Source of the DNA: Dehalococcoidia bacterium
Lineage (GTDB): Bacteria > Chloroflexota > Dehalococcoidia > Lucifugimonadales > UBA3495
Direction: 5' to 3'
Assembly: GCA_965205495.1 (NCBI GenBank)
Contig: CBDBHA010000002.1
Location: forward strand, 1,782,326-1,846,325
Length of the DNA stretch: 64,000 nucleotides
The translations under genes and the position numbers were made by a program. The notes beneath the pieces are model-generated. The model searched no databases. It had not been told where the DNA came from and saw only the letters and a program-made list of their open reading frames with translations. Positions within the stretch are counted from its first letter, which is position 1. Each line of letters opens with the position of its first letter. Shown here one piece after another: positions 1 to 64,000 of the stretch.

Positions 1-139
1 TTTCCGGCTGAGGAACAAAACTTTCGGCCCCAAAAATGGCGGAACCGATCGCGCCCCGGACCAAGCCGACCACCAAGAGGACCGCCAGAACCAGACCGAC
101 CACCAAAAGCAGCCTTTTAGCCGCGGGGTTCGCCAGCAC
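1..139 (-). CDS. N-terminal fragment of a membrane protein that continues past the window start. By position it is the next gene of the ATP-synthase operon (atpI/atpB-like).
   Basis: GTG at 139-137 overlaps the TAG of the upstream atpZ-like ORF (TAGTG). It reads VLANPAAKRLLLVVGLVLAVLLVVGLVRGAIGS with one clear hydrophobic helix. It is absent from the ORF track because it is open-ended. Confidence 0.35.
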   Translation of the reverse strand, partial: MLANPAAKRLLLVVGLVLAVLLVVGLVRGAIGSAIFGAESFVPQPE

Positions 140-390
140 TAGGGGTCCCTCCTCTTTCCGCTCGTTTCCTGCCGGTTAGTTCCGTAGAGGACCGGCAGTA
201 CCATTTTATATACGCCCCAAAAGGCCGCGACGCTGCCCAAAACCGTACCCAGCAGGGTAAACAAGGCTTTGGATCCGAAGAGCCGGTCGAGCCATACACC
301 TCCGGCCACTCCGATAACCACGCAGGCGGCCACGTACCAGCCCAGGCCGGTGAGACGCAGGGCAACCGACCACCAGGGGGCGCCCTTCAC
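139..390 (-). CDS. AtpZ/AtpI-like small membrane protein of the kind that opens F1Fo ATPase operons
   Basis: 83 aa with two hydrophobic helices (LGWYVAACVVIGVAGGVWL and LFTLLGTVLGSVAAFWGVY). GTG start lies 4 nt after GAGG. Size, topology and position fit AtpZ-type ORFs, from family recall only. Confidence 0.55.
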   Translation of the reverse strand: MKGAPWWSVALRLTGLGWYVAACVVIGVAGGVWLDRLFGSKALFTLLGTVLGSVAAFWGVYKMVLPVLYGTNRQETSGKRRDP

Positions 391-402
391 GAAACCTCGT
401 GA

Positions 403-431
403 ATATTATCACCAGCGTTTTTAAAAGTCAA
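403..431 (-). promoter_or_regulatory. sigma70-like promoter for the atpZ-like operon
   Basis: Minus strand TTGACT (431-426), 17-nt spacer, TAATAT (408-403) with a TGn extended -10, just upstream of the RBS and GTG at 390. Confidence 0.5.
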
Positions 432-533
432 TTTAACCCTTGGTGGCCGGAAACTAACAATGCGTTTACGAAAACACCCCAGCCGGTAGGGGGCTGGGGC
501 GCGGAATAGAGACAAAACCTGGTGGGCGATGGG

Positions 534-1088
534 TCATGCCCCTTCGGTCTGCTGCTTGCCGAAGTCCTCCAAGTCCAGGTCGTTGATGAAGTCGGTGAAA
601 GCGGACATTCGGCGGAGTTCTTCCTCGTCGACGGGGGCGGCTTCGGGCCGGCCTGGGCGCTCGGGGACGATGGGCTTTCCGGTGTCCTTATCCAGCAAGA
701 TGCCGGCTTTTTCCATGACGGCTTCTTCGGCGAAGATAGGGACTTGGGAGCGGACGGCCAGGGCCATGGCGTCGCTGGGGCGCGAGTCAATTTCCTTGTC
801 GTCGCCGTTAAGCTGGATGACGATTTTGGCGTAGAAAGTATCGTTTTGGAGGTCGTTGACCAGGATGTGTTTGACCTGGCCACCGAGGGTATCTATGACG
901 GTGCGGAGCAGGTCGTGGGTCAGGGGGCGGGGAACGCTGAGGTCCTGAAGTTTAACGGCGATGGCGTCGGCTTCCGCCGGGCCGATCCAGATTGGGAGGT
1001 ACCGGTCGGAGTCCTTCTCTTTGAGGATAACCACGCGTTGGTAGTTCATCGGACTGACCCGTATGCTGTCGACGTTCATTTCCAGCAT
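534..1088 (-). CDS. bifunctional nuclease (BFN/DUF151) domain protein
   Basis: 184 aa. The N-terminal 130 aa read as a BFN domain (RVVILKEKDSDRYLPIWIGPAEADAI..RPLTHDLL..SRPSDAMALAVR). GGGAGG lies 7 nt before the ATG, and the C-terminal tail is acidic. Confidence 0.8.
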   Translation of the reverse strand: MLEMNVDSIRVSPMNYQRVVILKEKDSDRYLPIWIGPAEADAIAVKLQDLSVPRPLTHDLLRTVIDTLGGQVKHILVNDLQNDTFYAKIVIQLNGDDKEIDSRPSDAMALAVRSQVPIFAEEAVMEKAGILLDKDTGKPIVPERPGRPEAAPVDEEELRRMSAFTDFINDLDLEDFGKQQTEGA

Positions 1089-1384
1089 CTGACTACCTCC
1101 CTTCGCTTCGTGACGGCATCCGAAAGTGTATGCTCAGAGGAAAACCTGTGTCAACCCAAAACAGGGGTTTTTTGGGAGACGTGGAGGGGACAGAACTTAC
1201 TGAAAAGAAGGCTTGCTTGGGGAACCAACGGCGGTGGGCGCTGTGCCGCGCAGGTGTACGACGAAGGGTCCCCCACGGCGGGCCAACGGGGCGTCTTCGC
1301 GGGGTGGGGAGCCGGGGGTGGAAGAGGAGGCAGCCCAACCCCAGGGGGGAGAGCGTTGGGCTGCCTCCTTGCGGGGGGGGATGG

Positions 1385-1870
1385 TTAGTCGTCTTCGGAG
1401 CCTAGGAGGGCCATGGAGGAGCTGCTGACCAAGGCGTTGCCGGCCAGCATATCAATGCCCTTGCGGACGGAGCCGTTAAGGCTTTGGAGTTCGCGTTCGA
1501 AGGCCCGCAGGGACCGGAGAGCGTAGGCGTCGGCTTCCATGCGCTTGGATTCGCACTCGGCATCGGCCTGTTCGATCAGGCGGGCGGCCCGGCGCTCGGC
1601 TTCCTTGAGCATATCGTCAGCGCGTTTGTGGAGCTCGCTCTGGTTGAGCCTTTCGCGGAACTCGTCCTCGGCCTTGGCCTTGGCGCGTCTGGCCTCGACC
1701 ATGGCGTTGTTAATGATTTGGTCTTTCTGGACTAATACTTCTTCGGCGTTCTTCACTTCCTGGGGGATATGGAGCCGGAGCTGATCGACCAGTTCCATGA
1801 CCTTGGTTTTATCCAGCATGAGGGCGCCGGTCACGGGCATGGTCTTGCTGGTTTTGACCAGGGTCTCCAA
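1385..1870 (-). CDS. coiled-coil protein of unknown function (DivIVA/ATPase-b-like heptads). The true start is probably upstream at a non-canonical codon near 1897.
   Basis: 161 aa from TTG 1870 with a charged helical sequence. The in-frame upstream codons DIIDIINVVDR look coding and follow a GGGAGG (1908-1903). See the finding on this start. Confidence 0.6.
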   Translation of the reverse strand: METLVKTSKTMPVTGALMLDKTKVMELVDQLRLHIPQEVKNAEEVLVQKDQIINNAMVEARRAKAKAEDEFRERLNQSELHKRADDMLKEAERRAARLIEQADAECESKRMEADAYALRSLRAFERELQSLNGSVRKGIDMLAGNALVSSSSMALLGSEDD

Positions 1871-1919
1871 ACGGTCAACAACGTTAATAATATCGATGAT
1901 GTCCTCCCTTTCCGGTTAG

Positions 1920-2414
1920 TCAGTTATTGGGGACCGGTAAGCCAAATTTGGAATATAACGCGTCCCTGACGTGGGGAGGCACCATGCCGGTGACGTCCCC
2001 ACATAAACGGGCAACTTCTTTAAGCAGGGTGGAGCTTACGAACATATAGTCCTGGGAGGTCATGAAAGAGACCATGTCGACGCCGGGGTCCAGATGGCGG
2101 TTCATGGAGGCCATCTCGAACTCGTACTCGAAGTCGGAGCCGCTGCGGAGGCCCCGGACGATGACGGCGGCATCGACTTCCTGGGCGAACCGGACCACCA
2201 AGCCGTTGAACTCTTGCACTTCGACGTTGGGCAGGTGTTGGATGGAATTCCGGAAGAGGTCGAGACGCTCTTCGGTAGTGAACAAAAGGTTCTTGGACGG
2301 GGTCGCGTAGACTGCCACGATGACCCGTTCAAAGAGGGCCGATGCCCTGGTGGTGATGTCCAGGTGACCCATGGTCACGGGATCGAAAGTCCCTGGGTAA
2401 ATGGCGGTTACCAC
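1920..2414 (-). CDS. coaD: phosphopantetheine adenylyltransferase
   Basis: 164 aa. YPGTFDPVTMGHLDI (the T/HxGH nucleotidyltransferase motif) and full-length CoaD-like sequence. Overlaps the rsmD stop. Confidence 0.95.
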   Translation of the reverse strand: MVTAIYPGTFDPVTMGHLDITTRASALFERVIVAVYATPSKNLLFTTEERLDLFRNSIQHLPNVEVQEFNGLVVRFAQEVDAAVIVRGLRSGSDFEYEFEMASMNRHLDPGVDMVSFMTSQDYMFVSSTLLKEVARLCGDVTGMVPPHVRDALYSKFGLPVPNN

Positions 2415-2983
2415 CCTTGCCTCCTGACGTAAAACTCCACCACGTTATCCCCGTAACGGCGGTGAGATTCAAGGAACAGAGGACCATAACTGGGAAGGAG
2501 GTCCTGGTGTCTGGAGTGTCCAATCACCACGATTCCTTCGTCGTCTACCAACCCTGGGGCCAAGGCTATCATTTCGAGAATCTCTCCCAAGTTCTGCAAC
2601 CGATAGGGCGGGTCCAACATAACCAACTGGTAGGGACCGGGCAAAGAGCTAACGATCCTGGCCGCGTCCGCGTGGTGGACTTTGGCTTGGTTTGTGAAAC
2701 CGGTGTTTTCCAGGTTGGAGCGAATTACGCCGCATTGCTGCCGGTCCCGTTCCACAAAATCGGCCCACGCCGCACCTCGACTCAAGGCTTCGATCCCCAG
2801 GCTGCCGGAGCCGGCGAAAAGGTCCAACGACTTCTTATCCAGGTAGGAGTTGGGAAGGAGGATATTGAAGATCGCCGCCCGCACCCGCTCGGTGGTGGGA
2901 CGCGCTCCGGGAGCGATGGCACCTTGTAATCGTCTTCCTTTCACCTGACCGCCGACCACCCGCATTGAGGATTTGGGGCGCAT
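2408..2983 (-). CDS. rsmD: 16S rRNA (guanine966-N2)-methyltransferase
   Basis: 191 aa. RVVGGQVKGRRL, DLFAGSGSLGIEALSRGA (SAM motif I) and MLDPPY (motif IV). AGGAG lies 4 nt before the ATG, and there is the classic rsmD-coaD pairing. Confidence 0.9.
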   Translation of the reverse strand: MRPKSSMRVVGGQVKGRRLQGAIAPGARPTTERVRAAIFNILLPNSYLDKKSLDLFAGSGSLGIEALSRGAAWADFVERDRQQCGVIRSNLENTGFTNQAKVHHADAARIVSSLPGPYQLVMLDPPYRLQNLGEILEMIALAPGLVDDEGIVVIGHSRHQDLLPSYGPLFLESHRRYGDNVVEFYVRRQGW

Positions 2984-3124
2984 TATACTCCTGGGGCTGC
3001 AACCGAGTTCTAGCGGAAACGGTGGTGGATTTTGGGCAATTTGGGCGCAGGGCCAGTAGGCCGGCGCCGGTACACCGGGTTGCCGGTCTCAATATACTAG
3101 GGCGGGGATGGGGATGTCCAAAAT

Positions 3125-3200
3125 GGAAGCGGCGATTTGGGCAACCTGGGGGGTGAAGTTTAGATTCCTCCCTACGGTTCGGAATGACAGGTTAGGGGCG
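3125..3200. repeat. interspersed repeat family F2 (core TTTAGATTCCTCCCTACGGTTCGGAATGACAGG), partial copy
   Basis: The same core recurs at 18014, 21895, 29016, 45264 and 47327. Confidence 0.8.
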
Positions 3201-3235
3201 GGGGACAACCAAAAGGCCGCACTCCCCAACAACAA

Positions 3236-3350
3236 TCAAAAAACCCCATACCGTGCAATTCAATCGCCGGCTTCTCCTCAACCCTTCTGGGTTCCGGCTC
3301 AAGGCCGGAATGACGGTTTAATGTCAGGATCACTCATCAATTCCGAACAC
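3236..3350 (+). repeat. interspersed repeat family F3 (hairpin ATTCCGGC-N5-GCCGGAAT, end motif ACTCATCAATTCYGAACAC), 5'-truncated copy
   Basis: Aligns by eye to 43690-43801 and to the reverse complement of 7860-7975. Confidence 0.8.
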
Positions 3351-3434
3351 CTACGGGGGCGAGGGTCAACTTCCCTATTGAAGGGCCAGCTATTACAATA
3401 ACGCCAGAATTTTGCGACGAGGAACGACGTCAGG

Positions 3435-4373
3435 ATGAACCTTCGCCAGCAGTTGGCTGAAGCCGCACCGGAGCGGGGAACCGTGTTGACCATTGGCGTT
3501 TTTGACGGTGTCCACCGGGGACATTGCCACCTGCTCCGGCGATTGATTGACGCGGCCCAACCGGAGTGGATGCCGGCGGCCATCACTTTCAGGAATCACC
3601 CCGCGACGGTCCTGCGGCCCGATTTTCAGGTCAACTACATCACCACGCCGGAAGCCAAGGTGGACCTGCTAAAGGCCCAGGGCGTGGAGTTGGTGATACC
3701 CCTGGAGTTCACCCGGGACCTTTCGCAAATGGACGCCGGAGACTTCACCCGAGCGTTGGTGGATGTTTTGCAATTGAAGGGGCTGGTCATTGGGCCGGAC
3801 TTTGCCCTTGGGAAAGACCGGCAGGGGAATGAAGAGTTCTTGCGCCGGACTGGTGAGGAGCTGGGGTTCTGGGTGGAAACGGTGGAGCCGTTGATCATCG
3901 ACGGAGCGGCGGTGCGCAGCCGCCGGATCAGGCAGACCATAACCGACGGAGACCTGACGGCGGGGAACAAGCTGCTGGGGCGCGAGTTTCACCTGTCGGG
4001 AGAAGTGGTGCAGGGCGACCAGCGAGGGCGGGAATTGGGATTCCCCACGGCCAATCTTGCGGTCAAAGAAGGGATGGTGGTGCCGGGGGACGGGATTTAC
4101 GCGACCTGGGCCATAGTAAACGGGCAACGGCTTCCGTCGGCCACGAGCATTGGGATACGTCCCACATTTGGGCTGACCCAGCGGTTGGTGGAAACGTACA
4201 TATTTGAGTTCAACGAAGACTTGTACGGAAAGACGCTGGGGGTGGAGTTCGTGGAGAAGCTGCGGGACCAGGAGGCTTTCGCGAGCGTGGAGGCCCTGAT
4301 AGACCAGGTAAACCAGGACGTGGCCGACGCCCGCAAGTCCTTGGCCGAAGATCAGGGGGTCCGAATTGGTTAG
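3435..4373 (+). CDS. ribF: bifunctional riboflavin kinase / FMN adenylyltransferase
   Basis: 312 aa. GVFDGVHRGH (FAD synthetase) and the C-terminal GFPTANL riboflavin-kinase motif. Confidence 0.95.
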   Translation: MNLRQQLAEAAPERGTVLTIGVFDGVHRGHCHLLRRLIDAAQPEWMPAAITFRNHPATVLRPDFQVNYITTPEAKVDLLKAQGVELVIPLEFTRDLSQMDAGDFTRALVDVLQLKGLVIGPDFALGKDRQGNEEFLRRTGEELGFWVETVEPLIIDGAAVRSRRIRQTITDGDLTAGNKLLGREFHLSGEVVQGDQRGRELGFPTANLAVKEGMVVPGDGIYATWAIVNGQRLPSATSIGIRPTFGLTQRLVETYIFEFNEDLYGKTLGVEFVEKLRDQEAFASVEALIDQVNQDVADARKSLAEDQGVRIG

Positions 4374-5586
4374 CCAGGCTGTCATCGACCAGGTCACGCG
4401 CCGGGGAGTGAAGGAGATCATCTCTCACGCCGAGTTTGTGGAGATGCTGCAAGGGGGGAAACCGCTCCGCTTGAAGATGGGGTTTGACCCCAGCCGGCCG
4501 GATATTCACCTGGGGCATGTGGTCGGGCTGCGGAAGCTGCGCCAGTTGCAGGACCTGGGACACCAGGTCATTCTCATCGTGGGGGACTGGACGGCGCAGA
4601 TTGGGGACCCCAGCGGCCGGTCGGCCACGCGGCCGATGCTGACCCACGAAGAAGTGGTGTCCAACGCCGAGTCCTACCTGCGGCAGTTCTTCAAGGTGGT
4701 GGACCGGGATCGGACTCAGGTTGAGTGGCAGAGCCAGTGGTTTGGCAAGTTTACCCTGGCGGACGTAATCCGGTTGACCAGCAAATTCACCGTGGCCCAA
4801 TTTTTGGAACGGGACGATTTTGCGCTACGGTTCCGGGAACACCGGCCCATCGCCATAACGGAGTTGTTGTACCCGTTGCTGCAAGCTTACGATTCGGTGG
4901 CGATAGAGTCGGACGTGGAGTTTGGGGGCACGGACCAGATGTTCAACCTCCTGGTGGGGCGGGAGTTACAGGGAATTATGGGGCAAAAACCCCAGCAATG
5001 CTTCCTGATGCCGATATTGGTCGGGACCGACGGCGTCCAAAAGATGAGCAAGAGCCTGGGAAACTATGTGGCGTTGGAAGAAGAGCCCAACGACATGTAC
5101 GGGAAGCTCATGTCTTTGCCGGACACGTTGATAGTTTCCTACTTTGATTACTTGACGGACGCTCCGGAGCAGGAATTGGCGGAGATGGCCCAGGCCATCG
5201 AATCGGAAGCGGTCAACCCGATGGAACTCAAAAAACGGTTGGCCAGCGAAGTTACGGCAACCTTCCACGATCCGGAAGCGGCGCGCGGGGCGCAAGCCCA
5301 CTTTGAGCGGGTTATTCAGCAACGAAGTGTGCCGGAAGAGATCCCGGAGTTCGCCTGGGACCCAGATACCATCGAGGGCGGGGTAACTTTAAGCCGCTTG
5401 TTGGTATCGGCGGGGATGGCTTCCAGCAACGGCGAGGCCAAGCGGCTGATCAACCAGCGGGCGGTACAGCTTATCCGGGAGTCGGGCGAAAGCGACGTGT
5501 TGATCAACGAAGGCGCTGCCAGGGAACTGCAACCCGGGGACGTCCTGCGGGTAGGGCGGCGGCGCTTCGTCAGGCTGACCAACTAG
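4366..5586 (+). CDS. tyrS: tyrosine--tRNA ligase
   Basis: 406 aa. HLGH (DIHLGHVVG) and KMSKS motifs, with a C-terminal S4-like domain. The TTG start overlaps the ribF stop. Confidence 0.95.
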
Positions 5587-58395: not shown

Positions 58396-58767
58396 CTATC
58401 GCCGGGGCAACCGTGGGAAGTACTGCCGGTAAACGGCCGCCAGGATGCCGTCGGTTACCTGCTGGGCGGCCCGCTGCTGGGGAGCAGTTTGCGCCTGCTG
58501 CAATACTTCACCGGCAACGTCTAGGAGGCCCAGGGGGAGCCTTCGGGCCACGGCGTCGTTGATCTCCCGGTTGCAAAGTTCCCTGGCGGCCTGGACTTGG
58601 CGCACGTAATCGGGGGTGGATCCGAGGGAAGTCCCCAACTGCTCGTTGAGTTCCTGGAGGGCGGCGAGGAGCAAATGCAAAACGGTGGCCGGGGTTCCCT
58701 CCAGGGCCCTTTTCAGGGCCGCGGTCTTCAGTCCCTCCCTTTCCAGGGACTCAACAAGTTGACCCAT
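58396..58767 (-). CDS. small helical cytoplasmic protein of unknown function, or the -1-frame continuation of the upstream gene's tail
   Basis: 123 aa. The ATG at 58767 overlaps the upstream ORF by 40 nt, and the stop abuts the next gene's start. Confidence 0.45.
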   Translation of the reverse strand: MGQLVESLEREGLKTAALKRALEGTPATVLHLLLAALQELNEQLGTSLGSTPDYVRQVQAARELCNREINDAVARRLPLGLLDVAGEVLQQAQTAPQQRAAQQVTDGILAAVYRQYFPRLPRR

Positions 58768-60299
58768 GGCAACCCGCCGTTCGCTGTGGGGCCAGCCAAA
58801 CCTTCGAGGGTTTGCACGGCGGAAAGGACTACCTGTTCCCGGTCTAAAAGCGCCGACATATCCCCATTAACGCTGGGAGGGTTGGCAAGGACCGCTTCAA
58901 GGAAGGATAGCTCGCGCAATTCTTGCGCCTGCTGACCGAGAATGGCGGACAAGTTCCGCAGTTCGGTTGCTTTGGTTTCCTTGCGGCGCTGCATGGCCCG
59001 CTGCGCTGACGGGTCGGGCGGCTGCTCTTGGAGACCCCCGCGTTTGGACCGCAACCAAATGAAAAGCGTCACCAGAGCCGCAACAATAGAGAAGGCGATA
59101 ACCCCCACCACGGCCCAAAGCACCCATTTCCATGGTCCATCGAGACCGAAAAACCCGAAGAGACCTTGTTTCTCCGGTTCGGTTGTCACACCTGGGCCGG
59201 GGGTTGTCACAAGTTCTTGCTGATTGGCTGGGGGGATTTTCGTCTCAGTATAGCCAGCCACAAGGATTGCCTCAGTATCGGTGAGTTTGGGCGAGTTAGG
59301 TTTCGGGGTTTCGGCAATTTCTGGAGTCTCTGGGGCTGGGGTTGCCTGGGGGACGGTTTCGCTGGTCCCAGCGGTGGGGTCGCTGGTCGGACCAGGAGTT
59401 TCAACGTTGTGGTCATCGGTGAAACCATCACCGTCGGTGTCACCCTTCTTCGGATGGGTTCCGTAAAGGTTAACCTCATCGCCATCCGAGAGGGTGTCAC
59501 CGTCCGTGTCCTTTTTCAAAGGGTAGGTAAAGTATTTTTTTACCTCATCGCCGTCCGAGAGGCCGTCCTCATCGGTATCTGCGAGATTTGGATCGGTCTT
59601 GTAAGTTTCCACCTCATCCCAATCGGTGAGGCCGTCGCCATCCGAATCCTTTTGGTTTGGGTTGGTTCCATGAAACATCTCGAGGTTGTCGGCAAGCCTG
59701 TCGCCATCGGTGTCCTTGTTGTTGGGATTGGTCCCGTGTTCGTTCACCTCATCCCCGTCGGAGAGGCCGTCATTGTCGGAATCGGCCTTGAGTGGATCGG
59801 TTTGGTGGGTGTTCACCTCAGCGCCGTCAAGGAGGCCATCGCCGTCGGTATCTGCCCATAGTGGTTTAGAGTTATTTTCGGCTATTTCAACGTAGTCGGT
59901 TAGCCCGTCGGCATCGCTATCCGGGTCAAGCGGGTTCGTTTTGTACCTCTGTAGCTCCTGACCGTCGGGTAGGCCGTCCTTATCGGTGTCCTCTTCCAAT
60001 GGATTAGTCCGGTGGGTGTTCACCTCTTCCCCATCGGTAAGACCGTCCTTGTCGGTATCGCGGCTTTTAGGATCGGTCTCGTAGGTGCACAACTCGTCCC
60101 AGTCGGTGAGTCCGTCACCGTCAGAATCCGCTTTTCCAGGAGAGGCATCACAAACCTCTTGGAGGTTGTCGGTGAGGCCGTCCTTATCGGTGTCTTGTTG
60201 GGGAGCCTGGATCGGGACGGCGGCCACCAGGGTAAGCGCCAACAGGAGCGCCACGCTGGTTAAACCGAGTCCCCGGAAAATGTTTGAGAAAAGGTTCAT
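58728..60299 (-). CDS. single-pass membrane protein with 12 thrombospondin type-3 repeats, a Pro/Thr/Glu linker and a ~107-aa helical cytoplasmic tail
   Basis: 523 aa from the ATG at 60299 (GGAG 8 nt upstream). Signal peptide MNLFSNIFRGLGLTSVALLLALTLVAAV, 12 DxDxDG units and TM helix VLWAVVGVIAFSIVAALVTLFIWL. The longer ORF-track start overlaps the upstream gene. Confidence 0.8.
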   Translation of the reverse strand: MNLFSNIFRGLGLTSVALLLALTLVAAVPIQAPQQDTDKDGLTDNLQEVCDASPGKADSDGDGLTDWDELCTYETDPKSRDTDKDGLTDGEEVNTHRTNPLEEDTDKDGLPDGQELQRYKTNPLDPDSDADGLTDYVEIAENNSKPLWADTDGDGLLDGAEVNTHQTDPLKADSDNDGLSDGDEVNEHGTNPNNKDTDGDRLADNLEMFHGTNPNQKDSDGDGLTDWDEVETYKTDPNLADTDEDGLSDGDEVKKYFTYPLKKDTDGDTLSDGDEVNLYGTHPKKGDTDGDGFTDDHNVETPGPTSDPTAGTSETVPQATPAPETPEIAETPKPNSPKLTDTEAILVAGYTETKIPPANQQELVTTPGPGVTTEPEKQGLFGFFGLDGPWKWVLWAVVGVIAFSIVAALVTLFIWLRSKRGGLQEQPPDPSAQRAMQRRKETKATELRNLSAILGQQAQELRELSFLEAVLANPPSVNGDMSALLDREQVVLSAVQTLEGLAGPTANGGLPWVNLLSPWKGRD

Positions 60300-61689
60300 G
60301 GGGATAACTCCGGTGAGTGGTCTCATTCGCGGGCGGAAAGCTAGGGTTGGGGGAAGGCGTCGATGCCCGCCATGTGCTCCAGGCCCCGGTTCAGGACCAA
60401 CTGCTCGGGAATCCGGCGGATGGCGTCGGCCAACGATTCGCCGTTCTGGGGGGCCCAATCCGGGTCCTGAAGCGCCAACCTGAGCCCGTCCTCCAGTTCC
60501 GGGAATTCGGGGCCGCAGAGCAACACGGTTAAACGGACGTCGGTCATTTGGGGAAAGCCGGCCATGAAAAAGCGGGCGAACCGCGACCTGTTGTTGGTTT
60601 CCGGCCCAGCCTCCGGGGCGCAGACCTCCCGGAGGAAGTCTTGGAAGCGGAGCAAGGCCAGGTTGTCGGGAATCATCCTTTCCAACGCCCAAGCGGGACC
60701 GGACAGCAGGGCCAAAATATTGCGGGAGGTGTAAGGGTCGCAATTGATGGTGGTGGCTTCGAACGCTTTGTCCAGCATATCCATGATGTCGGGAAGGCGG
60801 TTGGAATCCTTGGCGGCCACCAGGTTGGCCCGCATATTCTTGATGCGTTGGGGCGCGTTGGAAAGGGGAAATATTGAAAAGCCGGCGGCGATGAATTGGT
60901 GGGAAGCATCTCCGAGGGGCGCAACGGTAAGGCGGACGTTGGCCGGGTCCAGTTGAGTCCCGAAGGGGGCAAAGTGATAGGCAGCCTGGGCCGATAGGAA
61001 CACGGGCATGAGCACATCTTGCAAGTGCCGGTTAACTTCGGTTACCAGGTCTCGATGCCCCTGCTGGAGCAAAAGAAGGTTGTCGGCCAGGATTATGCCG
61101 TTGATGGCCGAGGTGGTGGCCAGGTAGTAAAGGGAAGTCAGCAGATTGCCCAACATGCGGGGGTCTCCGCGACCGGCGCCCTGGTCCCGCTCGGGGATGA
61201 TACAAACGCTGAAAGTTGCCACCGGCGCCGGTTCCATCACCTGCTGCATCCAGTCCACCACCACCGGCACCGACCCCGAACCGGTGCCGCCTCCCAGCCC
61301 GCTAAAGGTGGTCAAGTAACCGTTGTACACCCGGCTCAATACATTGGCCTCGTTAAGATGGCCAAGGTTGGCTTCCCGAGCGTCGGCGTTCGAGCGGAAA
61401 TTGTATAAGGCGGAGGCTCGGCCATTGAGGGTAAATCCGCCGGCCCCTCCAGTCCTTTCCACGCTGTACCCCTGCCCGGCCTGGCCCTCCTCATCCCCCG
61501 GCGCTGAAGGCAGGCCCAGGAGTTCGGGGATGTCTTCAGGCGGCGGCGGGGCGAAGGCGATTTGGACCCTGGGGTCGTGCCAACCGAAGAAATTGTCCAT
61601 TCTTTCCGGCAGGTCGGCCTGGGTGTCCATGGCGATGGCGCGGACCGGAAAGGTTCCCGGAAGAACCGCGGAAACAAAGTCGGGTTTCA

Positions 61690-62560
61690 GAACCTGTTTA
61701 CAATCTCTTCAGGATTAGCGCCGCGAAGGCAAGCACGACCATTTGCAGGCTGGTATCGAGCTTTCTTTCGCAGTTCTTCCAGAGTCGGCGGCACTTTTCC
61801 AGCCAGGCGAAAGACCGCTCCACCACCCATCGCTTCGGCAGTACTACGAAGGTGTGCATCTCATTGCGTTTCACCACCTCCACCGACGCTCCCAGCAGGC
61901 TCTGCACCCCAGCGGCAAAGGGCTCCCCAGTGTAACCCCCGTCCACCAGCACGTTCTGCACCAAGCTGAGGCCGTCCCGGTGCTGGTCAAACATCGCCAA
62001 AGCCCCAGCCCGGTCGGTGACGTTCGCCGTGGTCACGTGGATCGCATGGGGCAACCCCTGAGTATCCACCGCGATGTGGCGCTTGATTCCAGACACCTTC
62101 TTCCCCGCGTCATAGCCCTTCTGCTCGGCGCTGTCCGTGTTCTTGACGCTCTGGGAGTCCACGATGCAGAAGCTGCTCTGCTCTTTCCGACCATTGCTTC
62201 TCCGGGCCGCGCCAACCAATTTTTTTTAAGACTTGCTCCAGAATGGACTCTTGCTCTGGGTCAGGCCGCTCGCTCCATTGCTGGAAATACTGGTAGCAGG
62301 TGCCCCAATTGGGGAAGTCCGCAGGGAGCATCCGCCACTGGCACCCGCTTTTCAAAAGATAGAGCACCCCGCAGAAAACGTCGTACAAGTCCACGGTGCG
62401 GGGCTTGGTCCGGCGGCGGGCCGACTCCAAATCCGGCAGAATCCGGGTAAATTGCTCCCGGCTGATGTCGCTGGGATAGGAATGAGACATGATTGCCCCT
62501 CCCTCCGGTAATCGTCTCAACTTATCATATTTTAGAGATTGCAAACAGGTTCTTAGGCGG
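61690..62560 (-). mobile_element. IS5-family insertion sequence (871 bp), a different element from the one at 41626
   Basis: Inverted repeats GAACCTGTTTACAATCTCT and AGAGATTGCAAACAGGTTC (18/19). The flanks TCA and TTA (T-N-A) are imperfect. It lies inside the tubulin-like gene. Confidence 0.88.
61698..62490 (-). CDS. IS5-family DDE transposase in two frames (orfA from 62490; orfB in the +1 frame after an A8 run at 62227-62220)
   Basis: MSHSYPSDISREQFTRILP.. (DUF4096-type), then ..[38 protein letters not shown].. and a DDE core. orfA is also open upstream into the host gene. Confidence 0.85.
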
Positions 62561-62798
62561 AACACGCCAGCCAGCTTGCTGCCCGCCTCGCCACAGCCCA
62601 CCAAGCAAATGGAATGGAGTTCTTTTGAACGGATTTCCTGGTTAAAATAGTCCAGGACCGAGTCTCGGATGTCGAGGTTTTGCTGGGACTCGTTAACCTG
62701 TACCACTTACCACCTCGTCAGTCGTCTGGGGACCCCCAAGCAACGTTGGGCGACCCGCGGAAACCCTGGAAGACCGCAACCTGTGTGATATTGACGTA

Positions 62799-62931: not shown

Positions 62932-64000
62932 TTGATAGAAATCTTCTTACAGGCAATTCATCCGCTGGTATTCGTCGTTTTGTTTTCGGCGGGGGTATGC
63001 GCGGCGGCGGCCGTTGGGGCGTTGGTGCTGCAACGTATTGCCGAGCAATTGGAAGGTCCCGGTCCCGCCTACACCCTGCCCGGTTGGGTGAAGTTCTTCT
63101 TGCCGCTTTTGGTGACCGCAACCGCGGCCTGCGGTTTGTTCTGGCTGCGCCCCATCTGGCAGGAACCCTTGGAATTCTGGGTCAATGTCACTTTTTGGCT
63201 ATTGCTTTGTGCCGGGTTGTTCCTTTCTCTGTCAGTGGCGGCGGGCGTCACTTATTGGAAAGACCACTGGAGACCTGGGAAGGTGGTGGCCGGTGGAATA
63301 CTTGGCATATTTTTGTTGGGAGTCATGTTAACGGAGGCCGTCGACGACAGGCCGGTTTCCGGCAACCCCCAACCGTTTGACCAGGCCGGCAGCAGGGTTG
63401 TTCTTGCCAAGGGGGTGGAGATAGAGGTCAAGCCTTGGCGGGAAGCGGTTAAGGTGGGAGAGATAGTCCCCCTGGGCGTGACCGTCAGGAACAGTTCGGG
63501 TGTTAACATCTCCGACCTGACCATTCAACCGGTCCAGGTATCCGAGTCCGTGATTGTAGATTGGCAGTCCCGCTCCCTCGGCAACCTTCAAGACACAGCC
63601 ACTTGGGGCCCCGAGCTTTTTGAGGCGCAATTGCTGAAACCGGGCGACCAGGAGGTTGAGTTCCGGTTGAGTTACATCGATGCGCCTACGCAGAGGCCCA
63701 GGCAAGTATCTCAGCGGTGGACCGGGACGGTTGGTGGTCCCAGTTTGGAGGTCCAACGTTACATTTACAGCGGGCCGGTCGTAACCAGCGGGCAAATCAT
63801 CGACGTCAGACTGTTAATCCGGAACGTGGGAGCAGGGCCGGTCTACCGGCTGCAAATGGAACCCAATCTAATGGAATTCTTCCAATCCTCCACAACATTG
63901 CGTTGGCCCGATATCCTTGAACCTGGCGAAGAGTTTCACGCCTCTTACACCGCAAGAGCGGACCGCGCGGGTGAGGGTCCCTTGGAGGACCCCAACGCCG
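62932..64000 (+). CDS. partial (3'-open) membrane protein: about 4 N-terminal TM helices followed by repeated CARDB/DUF11-like beta-sandwich modules
   Basis: Hand-translated frame with no stop from 62908 to the window end. The first start candidate is TTG 62932. Modules GEIVPLGVTVRNSSGVNISDLTI and GQIIDVRLLIRNVGAGPVYRLQM. Not in the ORF track because it is open-ended. Confidence 0.6.
   Translation, partial: MIEIFLQAIHPLVFVVLFSAGVCAAAAVGALVLQRIAEQLEGPGPAYTLPGWVKFFLPLLVTATAACGLFWLRPIWQEPLEFWVNVTFWLLLCAGLFLSLSVAAGVTYWKDHWRPGKVVAGGILGIFLLGVMLTEAVDDRPVSGNPQPFDQAGSRVVLAKGVEIEVKPWREAVKVGEIVPLGVTVRNSSGVNISDLTIQPVQVSESVIVDWQSRSLGNLQDTATWGPELFEAQLLKPGDQEVEFRLSYIDAPTQRPRQVSQRWTGTVGGPSLEVQRYIYSGPVVTSGQIIDVRLLIRNVGAGPVYRLQMEPNLMEFFQSSTTLRWPDILEPGEEFHASYTARADRAGEGPLEDPNA

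Follow-up and report, generated by a model that had tools for sequence, protein, structure and literature searches.

The window analysed here, a 64-kb stretch of DNA from a Dehalococcoidia bacterium (contig CBDBHA010000002.1), carries on its minus strand a gene that is split by an insertion sequence (IS) and whose restored product belongs to the tubulin/FtsZ superfamily, apparently as a divergent, CetZ-like protein. Profile alignments place an asparagine of this protein, N301, at the catalytic position of the T7 loop, which is D212 in FtsZ, E218 in CetZ1 and E254 in alpha-tubulin. GTP hydrolysis at the T7 interface makes the filaments of tubulin, FtsZ and CetZ dynamic. The interpretation that we favour, at a probability of roughly 0.55, is that the T7-amide protein builds a slowly hydrolysing, static filament tied to membrane proteins with TSP3 repeats.

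The gene was restored by removing 866 bp (61689–62554) in silico, which gave a single open reading frame (ORF) of 499 amino acids (aa). This length equals that of intact homologues. With P0001, an intact metagenomic protein of 499 aa, the restored product shares 97% identity, and the N-terminus of the 5′ fragment is in the same register. The restored junction reads ...AGVFRL followed by KPDFV..., and the intact target site in the closest intact locus, L001, is CGC TTG AAA CCC. The parts of the gene and the motifs of the restored protein lie as follows.

62706–60341, minus strand: tubulin-like gene, whole interrupted span, split by the IS
62555–62706, minus strand: 5′ fragment of the gene, with a GTG start, codons 1–50 and the first two bases of codon 51
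60341–61688, minus strand: 3′ fragment of the gene, with the last base of codon 51, codons 52–499 and the stop
61689–62554, minus strand: IS5-family insertion sequence, the 866 bp whose excision restores the frame
62598–62581, minus strand: T1 box GCGEAG, aa 37–42, in the 5′ fragment
61619–61627, minus strand: T2 loop D72-T73-Q74, placed by global hhalign against FtsZ and by motif likeness
61451–61552, minus strand: insert between strand S3 and loop T3, aa 97–130, Pro/Gly/Glu-rich (APPPPEDIPELLGLPSAPGDEEGQAGQG at aa 97–124)
61418–61450, minus strand: T3 loop GGAGGFTLNGR, aa 131–141, tubulin/BtubA-like
61274–61294, minus strand: T4 signature GGGTGSG, aa 183–189, placed by motif
60929–60964, minus strand: T7 loop and start of helix H8, FGTQLDPANVRL, aa 293–304, placed by profile alignments and the model; D298 is encoded at 60949–60947 and N301 by AAC at 60940–60938

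The catalytic position of the T7 loop

A preliminary description of this DNA had aligned the segment with FtsZ by eye, and had proposed that the first acidic residue of the T7 loop is kept while the second is replaced by Asn. This alignment was reproduced by three independent comparisons. Alignment by hhalign against E. coli FtsZ, the sequence of which was checked against PDB entries, paired Q296 with N207, D298 with D209 and N301 with D212 (local probability 93.6%, E=2e-7; global probability 96.9%). A profile built from the family and its sister groups, compared with CetZ1 (PDB 4b46; E=1.8e-17), paired D298 with D215 and N301 with E218, and the T7 register was unchanged in a weak stretch that hmmsearch aligned with S. 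aureus FtsZ. Since these three comparisons agree, a misaligned T7 loop was rejected. Additionally, the AlphaFold2 (AF2) model displays the H7-T7-H8 arrangement, with core helix H7 at 265–282, a loop, and a helix from residue 299, so that neither profiles nor structure moved the region out of T7 or brought an acidic residue to its catalytic position. The restored motif is Q296-L-D298-P-A-N301, compared with N207-V-D209-F-A-D212 in E. coli FtsZ and D215-S-S-E218 in CetZ1; relative to the pattern N-x-D-x-x-(D/E), the loop retains the first Asp but lacks the catalytic acid.

The preliminary description had also asked whether orthologues share the Asn, and most do. Among 38 aligned homologues (26–97% identity), 32 have Asn at position 301, five have Asp and one has Arg, the protein with Arg being degenerate in its T3 loop as well; Q296 never varies, and 37 of the 38 have D298. 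Beyond the clade, the sister families (20–24% identity) carry the motif xLDxADxR, with Asp at the catalytic position in most, and where the alignment of distant CetZ-like matches is clear across T7, their residue is Asp or Glu. In a neighbour-joining tree of the family, the Asp members fall into four separate lineages, the rest of the clade being Asn. The presence of Asp outside the clade and in four lineages within it indicates that Asp is probably the ancestral residue, that Asn is typical of the clade, and that the site appears to have switched repeatedly between these two isosteric side chains. All Asn codons at this position are AAC, and codon usage therefore provides no independent test of selection. 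A literature search for natural T7 amide variants returned nothing relevant, and no description of the T7 variant or the operon of this family was found in the literature searched.

A separate observation concerns five distant proteins of 545–1209 aa (P0091, P0105, P0119, P0113 and P0102), which have Gln, Ser or Ala at T7 (for example LDWTQI, LDWSQL) in weak alignments. These proteins are possibly FtsZl1-like, and further divergent bacterial families may have lost the acid as well.

Nucleotide-binding loops, fold and family

The remaining nucleotide-binding loops T1, T3, T4 and T6 are intact, as judged from their conservation. The T1 box GCGEAG and the T4 signature GGGTGSG are invariant or near-invariant in the 38 homologues, and T3 (GGAGGF..GR) and T6 (D253-N254) are likewise conserved. 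The T3 loop, aligned with GAGGNFAVGY of BtubA and GLGAGANPEVGR of FtsZ, has invariant residues G131, G132, G140 and R141. The T2 loop, by contrast, holds a second change that may bear on catalysis. In FtsZ the T2 residue D45 is the second active-site acid, and Q74 stands where FtsZ has this acid (N43-T44-D45). Gln is found here in every clade member, while most sister families have FDTD and the outgroups mostly D. Furthermore, an independent sister lineage (P0056 and P0060) has amides at both the T2 and the T7 site.

A further claim of the preliminary description was that the segment between T1 and T4 is about 120 aa and longer than in canonical FtsZ. The greater length was borne out, while the figure was not: the stretch between the two boxes measures 140 aa. 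Across the clade the spacer has a median of 142 aa, and across the sister groups one of 138 aa. Under one measuring rule, applied to tool alignments of all four proteins, the T1-to-T4 distance is 146 aa here (G37 to G183), 88 aa in M. jannaschii FtsZ (G44 to G132), 101 aa in CetZ1 (G7 to G108) and 134 aa in BtubA (S10 to G144), i.e. 58, 45 and 12 aa more than in the respective relatives. The long spacer is a family-wide trait of near tubulin length and nothing particular to this gene. By global hhalign against FtsZ, the extra residues lie after H1 (approximately 9, in the conserved LKPDFVxAxLPxxYP), between S3 and T3 (approximately 33, the Pro/Gly/Glu stretch) and around H3 (approximately 15). 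The S3–T3 insert is modelled as a short helix (101–107) followed by disorder, with a predicted local distance difference test (pLDDT) value below 50 at residues 114–133, and across the clade the segment varies from 27 to 78 aa with low column identity except at the PP...LL positions. It is a variable, disordered loop. As it immediately precedes T3, which senses the gamma-phosphate, it probably lies exposed at the surface, close to the longitudinal or lateral interfaces.

The AF2 model, built with the 38 homologues (pLDDT 83.7; predicted template-modelling score 0.85), predicts the full two-domain tubulin fold, i.e. a Rossmann-like GTPase domain, the core helix H7 and a C-terminal activation domain. 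Foldseek matched it over the whole chain to tubulins, BtubA, TubZ and CetZ1 (E ~1e-14, probability 1.00, approximately 440–520 columns), with the highest target-length-normalised TM-score, 0.77, for CetZ1; identity to FtsZ and tubulins in these matches is 11–16%. The profile of family and sister groups likewise matched CetZ1 (E=1.8e-17) better than BtubA (6e-12) and tubulins (~1e-9), in a single stretch that runs from T4 to the C-terminus (profile 153–451 against CetZ1 97–394). The Pfam family PF00091 (Tubulin) scores 20.7 bits with the window protein, below its gathering cut-off of 33, and matches all 38 homologues at E<=0.01 (best 9.7e-9).

Several named families were considered and rejected as a home for this protein. 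Membership of FtsZ is opposed by a TIGR00065 score of 15.4 bits against a cut-off of 295 and by the neighbouring TSP3 membrane proteins, and no match to the FtsZ_C domain was obtained in the 38 members. FtsZl1 is opposed by a PF13809 (Tubulin_2) score of 11.5 bits against a cut-off of 27 and by a protein of only 499 aa with a canonical C-terminal domain. Canonical CetZ is opposed by the bacterial host, the replacement of the catalytic Glu by N301 and a different gene context.

CetZ1, the archaeal cell-shape protein of Haloferax volcanii, is nevertheless the solved structure that best matches the family in sequence, and it resembles the family in its GxGQAG-like T1 and DND-like T6 motifs; it differs in being euryarchaeal, in having E218 at T7, in a T1–T4 spacing that is 45 aa shorter and in lacking the TSP3 operon partners of the present family. 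BtubA has a comparable T1–T3 spacing (90 aa, against 95 here) and T1–T4 spacing (134 against 146) and a similar T3 motif, GAGGN; BtubA/B, however, form a heterodimer pair found only in Prosthecobacter, in another gene context and without similarity to the family in the C-terminal domain. FtsZl1 and FtsZl2 are likewise divergent bacterial FtsZ-like proteins with family-specific T1–T4 inserts and a proposed membrane-associated context (Makarova and Koonin 2010, PMC2875224). Conversely, FtsZl1 has approximately 1000 aa, a coiled coil and an unrecognisable T6-H7/T7 region, FtsZl2 is proteobacterial with an unrelated C-terminal region of 300 aa, and the operon partners are vWA, GTPase and OmpA proteins rather than TSP3 proteins. 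Paraphyletic 'CetZ-like' groups with C-termini matching the CetZ_C model have been reported in Chloroflexota-Dehalococcoidia (Santana-Molina et al. 2023, PMC9871819), and the published Dehalococcoidia group may be the present family.

The family is rare: a word-indexed search gave 44 proteins, and when HMMER was run over all 1.84 billion cluster representatives, only 48 reached E<1e-10. All 13 species-representative genomes with a homologue are metagenome-assembled genomes (MAGs) of Dehalococcoidia, and a GTDB scan gave 14 matching stretches in 13 distinct loci, one genome each. Members with a named organism come exclusively from uncultured Dehalococcoidia (Chloroflexota). Two of the proteins, P0011 (811 aa) and P0015 (827 aa), both homologues at approximately 56% identity, carry an N-terminal extension of approximately 320 aa with a kinase-like Pfam match below the cut-off (E ~3e-4). 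These extensions recall the kinase fusions reported for FtsZl1 in Planctomycetes, and at the L019 locus a Pkinase gene lies approximately 2.5 kb upstream.

The insertion sequence and the operon

The tubulin-like locus in this genome is a pseudogene, inactivated by the IS, and the second gene of its operon is frameshifted as well. The 866 bp comprise an element of 863 bp (61690–62552) and one TNA copy of the target duplication, which is imperfect (flanking triplets TAA and TGA). Inverted repeats of 20 nt (61689–61708 and 62534–62553) agree at 19 of 20 positions. The element encodes orfA (62490–62110; Pfam DUF4096, E=1.2e-20) and orfB (62219–61698; Pfam DDE_Tnp_1, E=1.3e-29), and an A8 slippery run begins at 62216 between these two overlapping transposase frames. 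It belongs to the IS5 family, as fits its two-frame transposase, DUF4096 domain and inverted repeats, and is present as a single copy within the window. Outside the element, the gene fragments are 95–96% identical in DNA to the L001 gene (96.2% for the 3′ fragment) with no indels, and the codon differences comprise 42 synonymous and 14 non-synonymous changes. These figures indicate that the insertion is recent and that the gene was under purifying selection until then. At L001 itself, positions 1–5135 upstream of the cluster hold an integrase gene and transposase genes (DDE_Tnp_1, IstB_IS21 and DDE_3), and mobile elements seem to be abundant in this neighbourhood. Signs of a phage or plasmid, as would go with a TubZ-type system, were not noticed in the MAG synteny or among the housekeeping-like ORFs of the window, although no systematic search was made.

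The tubulin-like gene is the first gene of a conserved operon in which it is followed by two genes for TSP3 membrane proteins, and a further membrane protein is encoded divergently upstream.

58396–60299, minus strand: operon gene 2, with an N-terminal transmembrane/signal segment, TSP3 repeats, a transmembrane segment and a helical cytoplasmic domain of approximately 220 aa
55222–58395, minus strand: operon gene 3, 1057 aa, with an N-terminal and a C-terminal transmembrane segment; its start abuts the gene 2 stop
62932–64000, running off the window end, plus strand: divergent upstream gene, polytopic membrane protein without a Pfam match

Gene 2 is present in the window as two ORFs (60299–58728 and 58767–58396), separated by a deletion of 1 nt near position 58785 relative to the 90.8% identical gene of L001 (CCCCAC-AGCG against CCCCACTAGCG). 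This deletion is either a second inactivating lesion of the operon or an assembly error. The protein encoded by the fragment pair has TSP3, transmembrane and coiled-coil features. The ectodomain of gene 2 is short in some loci, while its transmembrane helix and cytoplasmic domain are retained. The product of gene 3 contains 28 DxDxDGxxD (TSP3) motifs (Pfam TSP3_bac, E=1.7e-147) and a conserved cytoplasmic tail of approximately 120 aa, for which a homology search returned no match.

This arrangement is kept in all 13 Dehalococcoidia loci (L002–L014), including L012, which is of the Asp type. TSP3-repeat membrane proteins also flank the genes of the sister families in L016, L019 and L020, even though these are only approximately 20% identical. 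The recurring synteny points to a conserved gene cluster that may connect a cytoskeletal protein with the cell envelope. The divergent polytopic membrane protein (approximately 655 aa) recurs in several loci, for instance L001 (7808–9775) and L019 (5605–7590), the copies of which are 28% identical (E=9e-58).

Properties of the putative filament

Engineered substitutions at the equivalent T7 position provide an argument for a static filament. FtsZ D212N is GTPase-defective and retains polymerisation (PMC3573117), human alpha-tubulin E254N does not hydrolyse GTP and forms catastrophe-free microtubules (PMC8764682), and in CetZ1, where E218 is the T7 catalytic residue, E218A leads to hyperstable polymers (bioRxiv 10.1101/2024.04.08.588506). 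As these mutants, like alpha-tubulin E254A, bind GTP and form stable polymers when hydrolysis is lost, a slow, static filament is the best reading of the present variant. Unlike the engineered mutants, the amide is in this case natural, conserved in the clade and paired with a second amide at T2. The latter, Q74, points in the same direction as slow hydrolysis, as far as the alignments allow.

The protein would, like its relatives, bind GTP and polymerise head-to-tail. In such a polymer the upper subunit would poorly activate the water that attacks the gamma-phosphate, hydrolysis would be very slow, and the resulting long-lived filaments would serve as a scaffold and would not treadmill dynamically. 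Of the two changes, that at T2 probably became fixed earlier and would have relaxed the need for a charge at T7. Position 301 is confined to Asp or Asn, and this suggests that the shape of the side chain is constrained and its charge is not, which fits a catalysis already weakened by the T2 change. The filament may act together with the two co-operonic bitopic proteins through the conserved transmembrane helix and cytoplasmic tail of these proteins, the outer parts of which are predicted to be long arrays of calcium-binding TSP3 repeats. Such a system would join a static cytoplasmic cytoskeleton to the envelope or to a calcium-dependent surface array. A more far-reaching proposal holds that the protein is a hydrolysis-deficient homopolymer with amides at T2 and T7, that it anchors a giant trans-envelope TSP3 system, and that switching between Asp and Asn tunes the lifetime of the filament; we put this forward tentatively and think it would more probably fail than stand.

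A number of points weigh against a slowly hydrolysing filament anchored to the TSP3 proteins. Polymerisation is assumed from homology, the link with the TSP3 proteins is one of synteny only, and the pairing of Q74 with D45 lies in a low-confidence region of the global hhalign alignment, supplemented by motif similarity. In principle, both the IS insertion and the deletion of 1 nt might be peculiar to the strain or stem from the assembly. Moreover, Asn can still hydrogen-bond water, D298 is retained, and five natural Asp homologues share the operon, such that hydrolysis may be only modestly changed or functionally irrelevant. These last points lead to the alternative that the Asn is near-neutral and the protein forms an ordinary dynamic, GTP-hydrolysing CetZ-like filament, with catalysis by D298 or by a partner resembling a GTPase-activating protein. 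The alternation of Asp and Asn in at least four lineages with one shared operon, the near-invariance of D298 in these proteins and the conservation of all GTP-binding loops would agree with this; yet a single exchange at the corresponding residue is enough to abolish hydrolysis in FtsZ and in tubulin, the whole clade carries an amide in place of the T2 acid as well, and the tolerance of the site for D, N and E alone speaks for a structural constraint. In our estimation near-neutrality is rather unlikely.

The preliminary description had raised the possibility of a regulatory subunit, and a non-catalytic T7 loop with an intact nucleotide pocket is indeed what would be expected of a regulatory or capping subunit that co-assembles, in the manner of beta-tubulin, with a tubulin/FtsZ homologue encoded elsewhere. 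Beta-tubulin carries Lys in place of the catalytic T7 acid, its nucleotide site being intact; it is thus likewise naturally non-catalytic, but as part of an obligate heterodimer with catalytic alpha-tubulin. A tandem partner of this kind was sought and rejected here: none of 20 loci holds a second tubulin-like gene within 10 kb, nor does the 64-kb window, and the matching stretches of the GTDB scan (14 in 13 loci) were each in a different genome. Co-polymerisation with FtsZ is unlikely because identity to FtsZ and tubulins is only 11–16%. The suggestion of a regulatory subunit therefore did not hold up well, and we give it little credence. Equally improbable, in our view, is a degenerating, non-polymerising pseudo-GTPase with a non-cytoskeletal role, of which the variant T7 loop would mark the loss of ancestral function. 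While the Pfam Tubulin score below its gathering cut-off, a homologue (P0036) with degenerate T3 and T7 loops and the IS-disrupted window copy are compatible with decay, the homologues (41–97% identical) bear the mark of strong purifying selection that includes the T7/H8 interface and the C-terminal domain, the excess of synonymous codon changes between the window and L001 is as given above, and synteny is conserved.

To our knowledge, work on hydrolysis-dead homopolymers of this superfamily has dealt mainly with mutants made in the laboratory. If the protein indeed forms a static filament, the natural Asn clade and its close Asp relatives would represent an evolutionary experiment on the cellular use of a static tubulin-like filament. 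For annotation, the family illustrates that a protein below the threshold of the Pfam tubulin family can still be predicted to have the full tubulin fold. The operon with TSP3 transmembrane proteins points to an uncharacterised link between cytoskeleton and envelope in Dehalococcoidia. Cultured members of this class lack peptidoglycan, and the arrangement may echo the role of CetZ in the cell shape of wall-less, S-layer-bearing archaea. Should the protein prove to be a static scaffold that anchors the TSP3 proteins, it would constitute a bacterial, CetZ-derived scaffold between cytoskeleton and envelope, of a kind not yet described.

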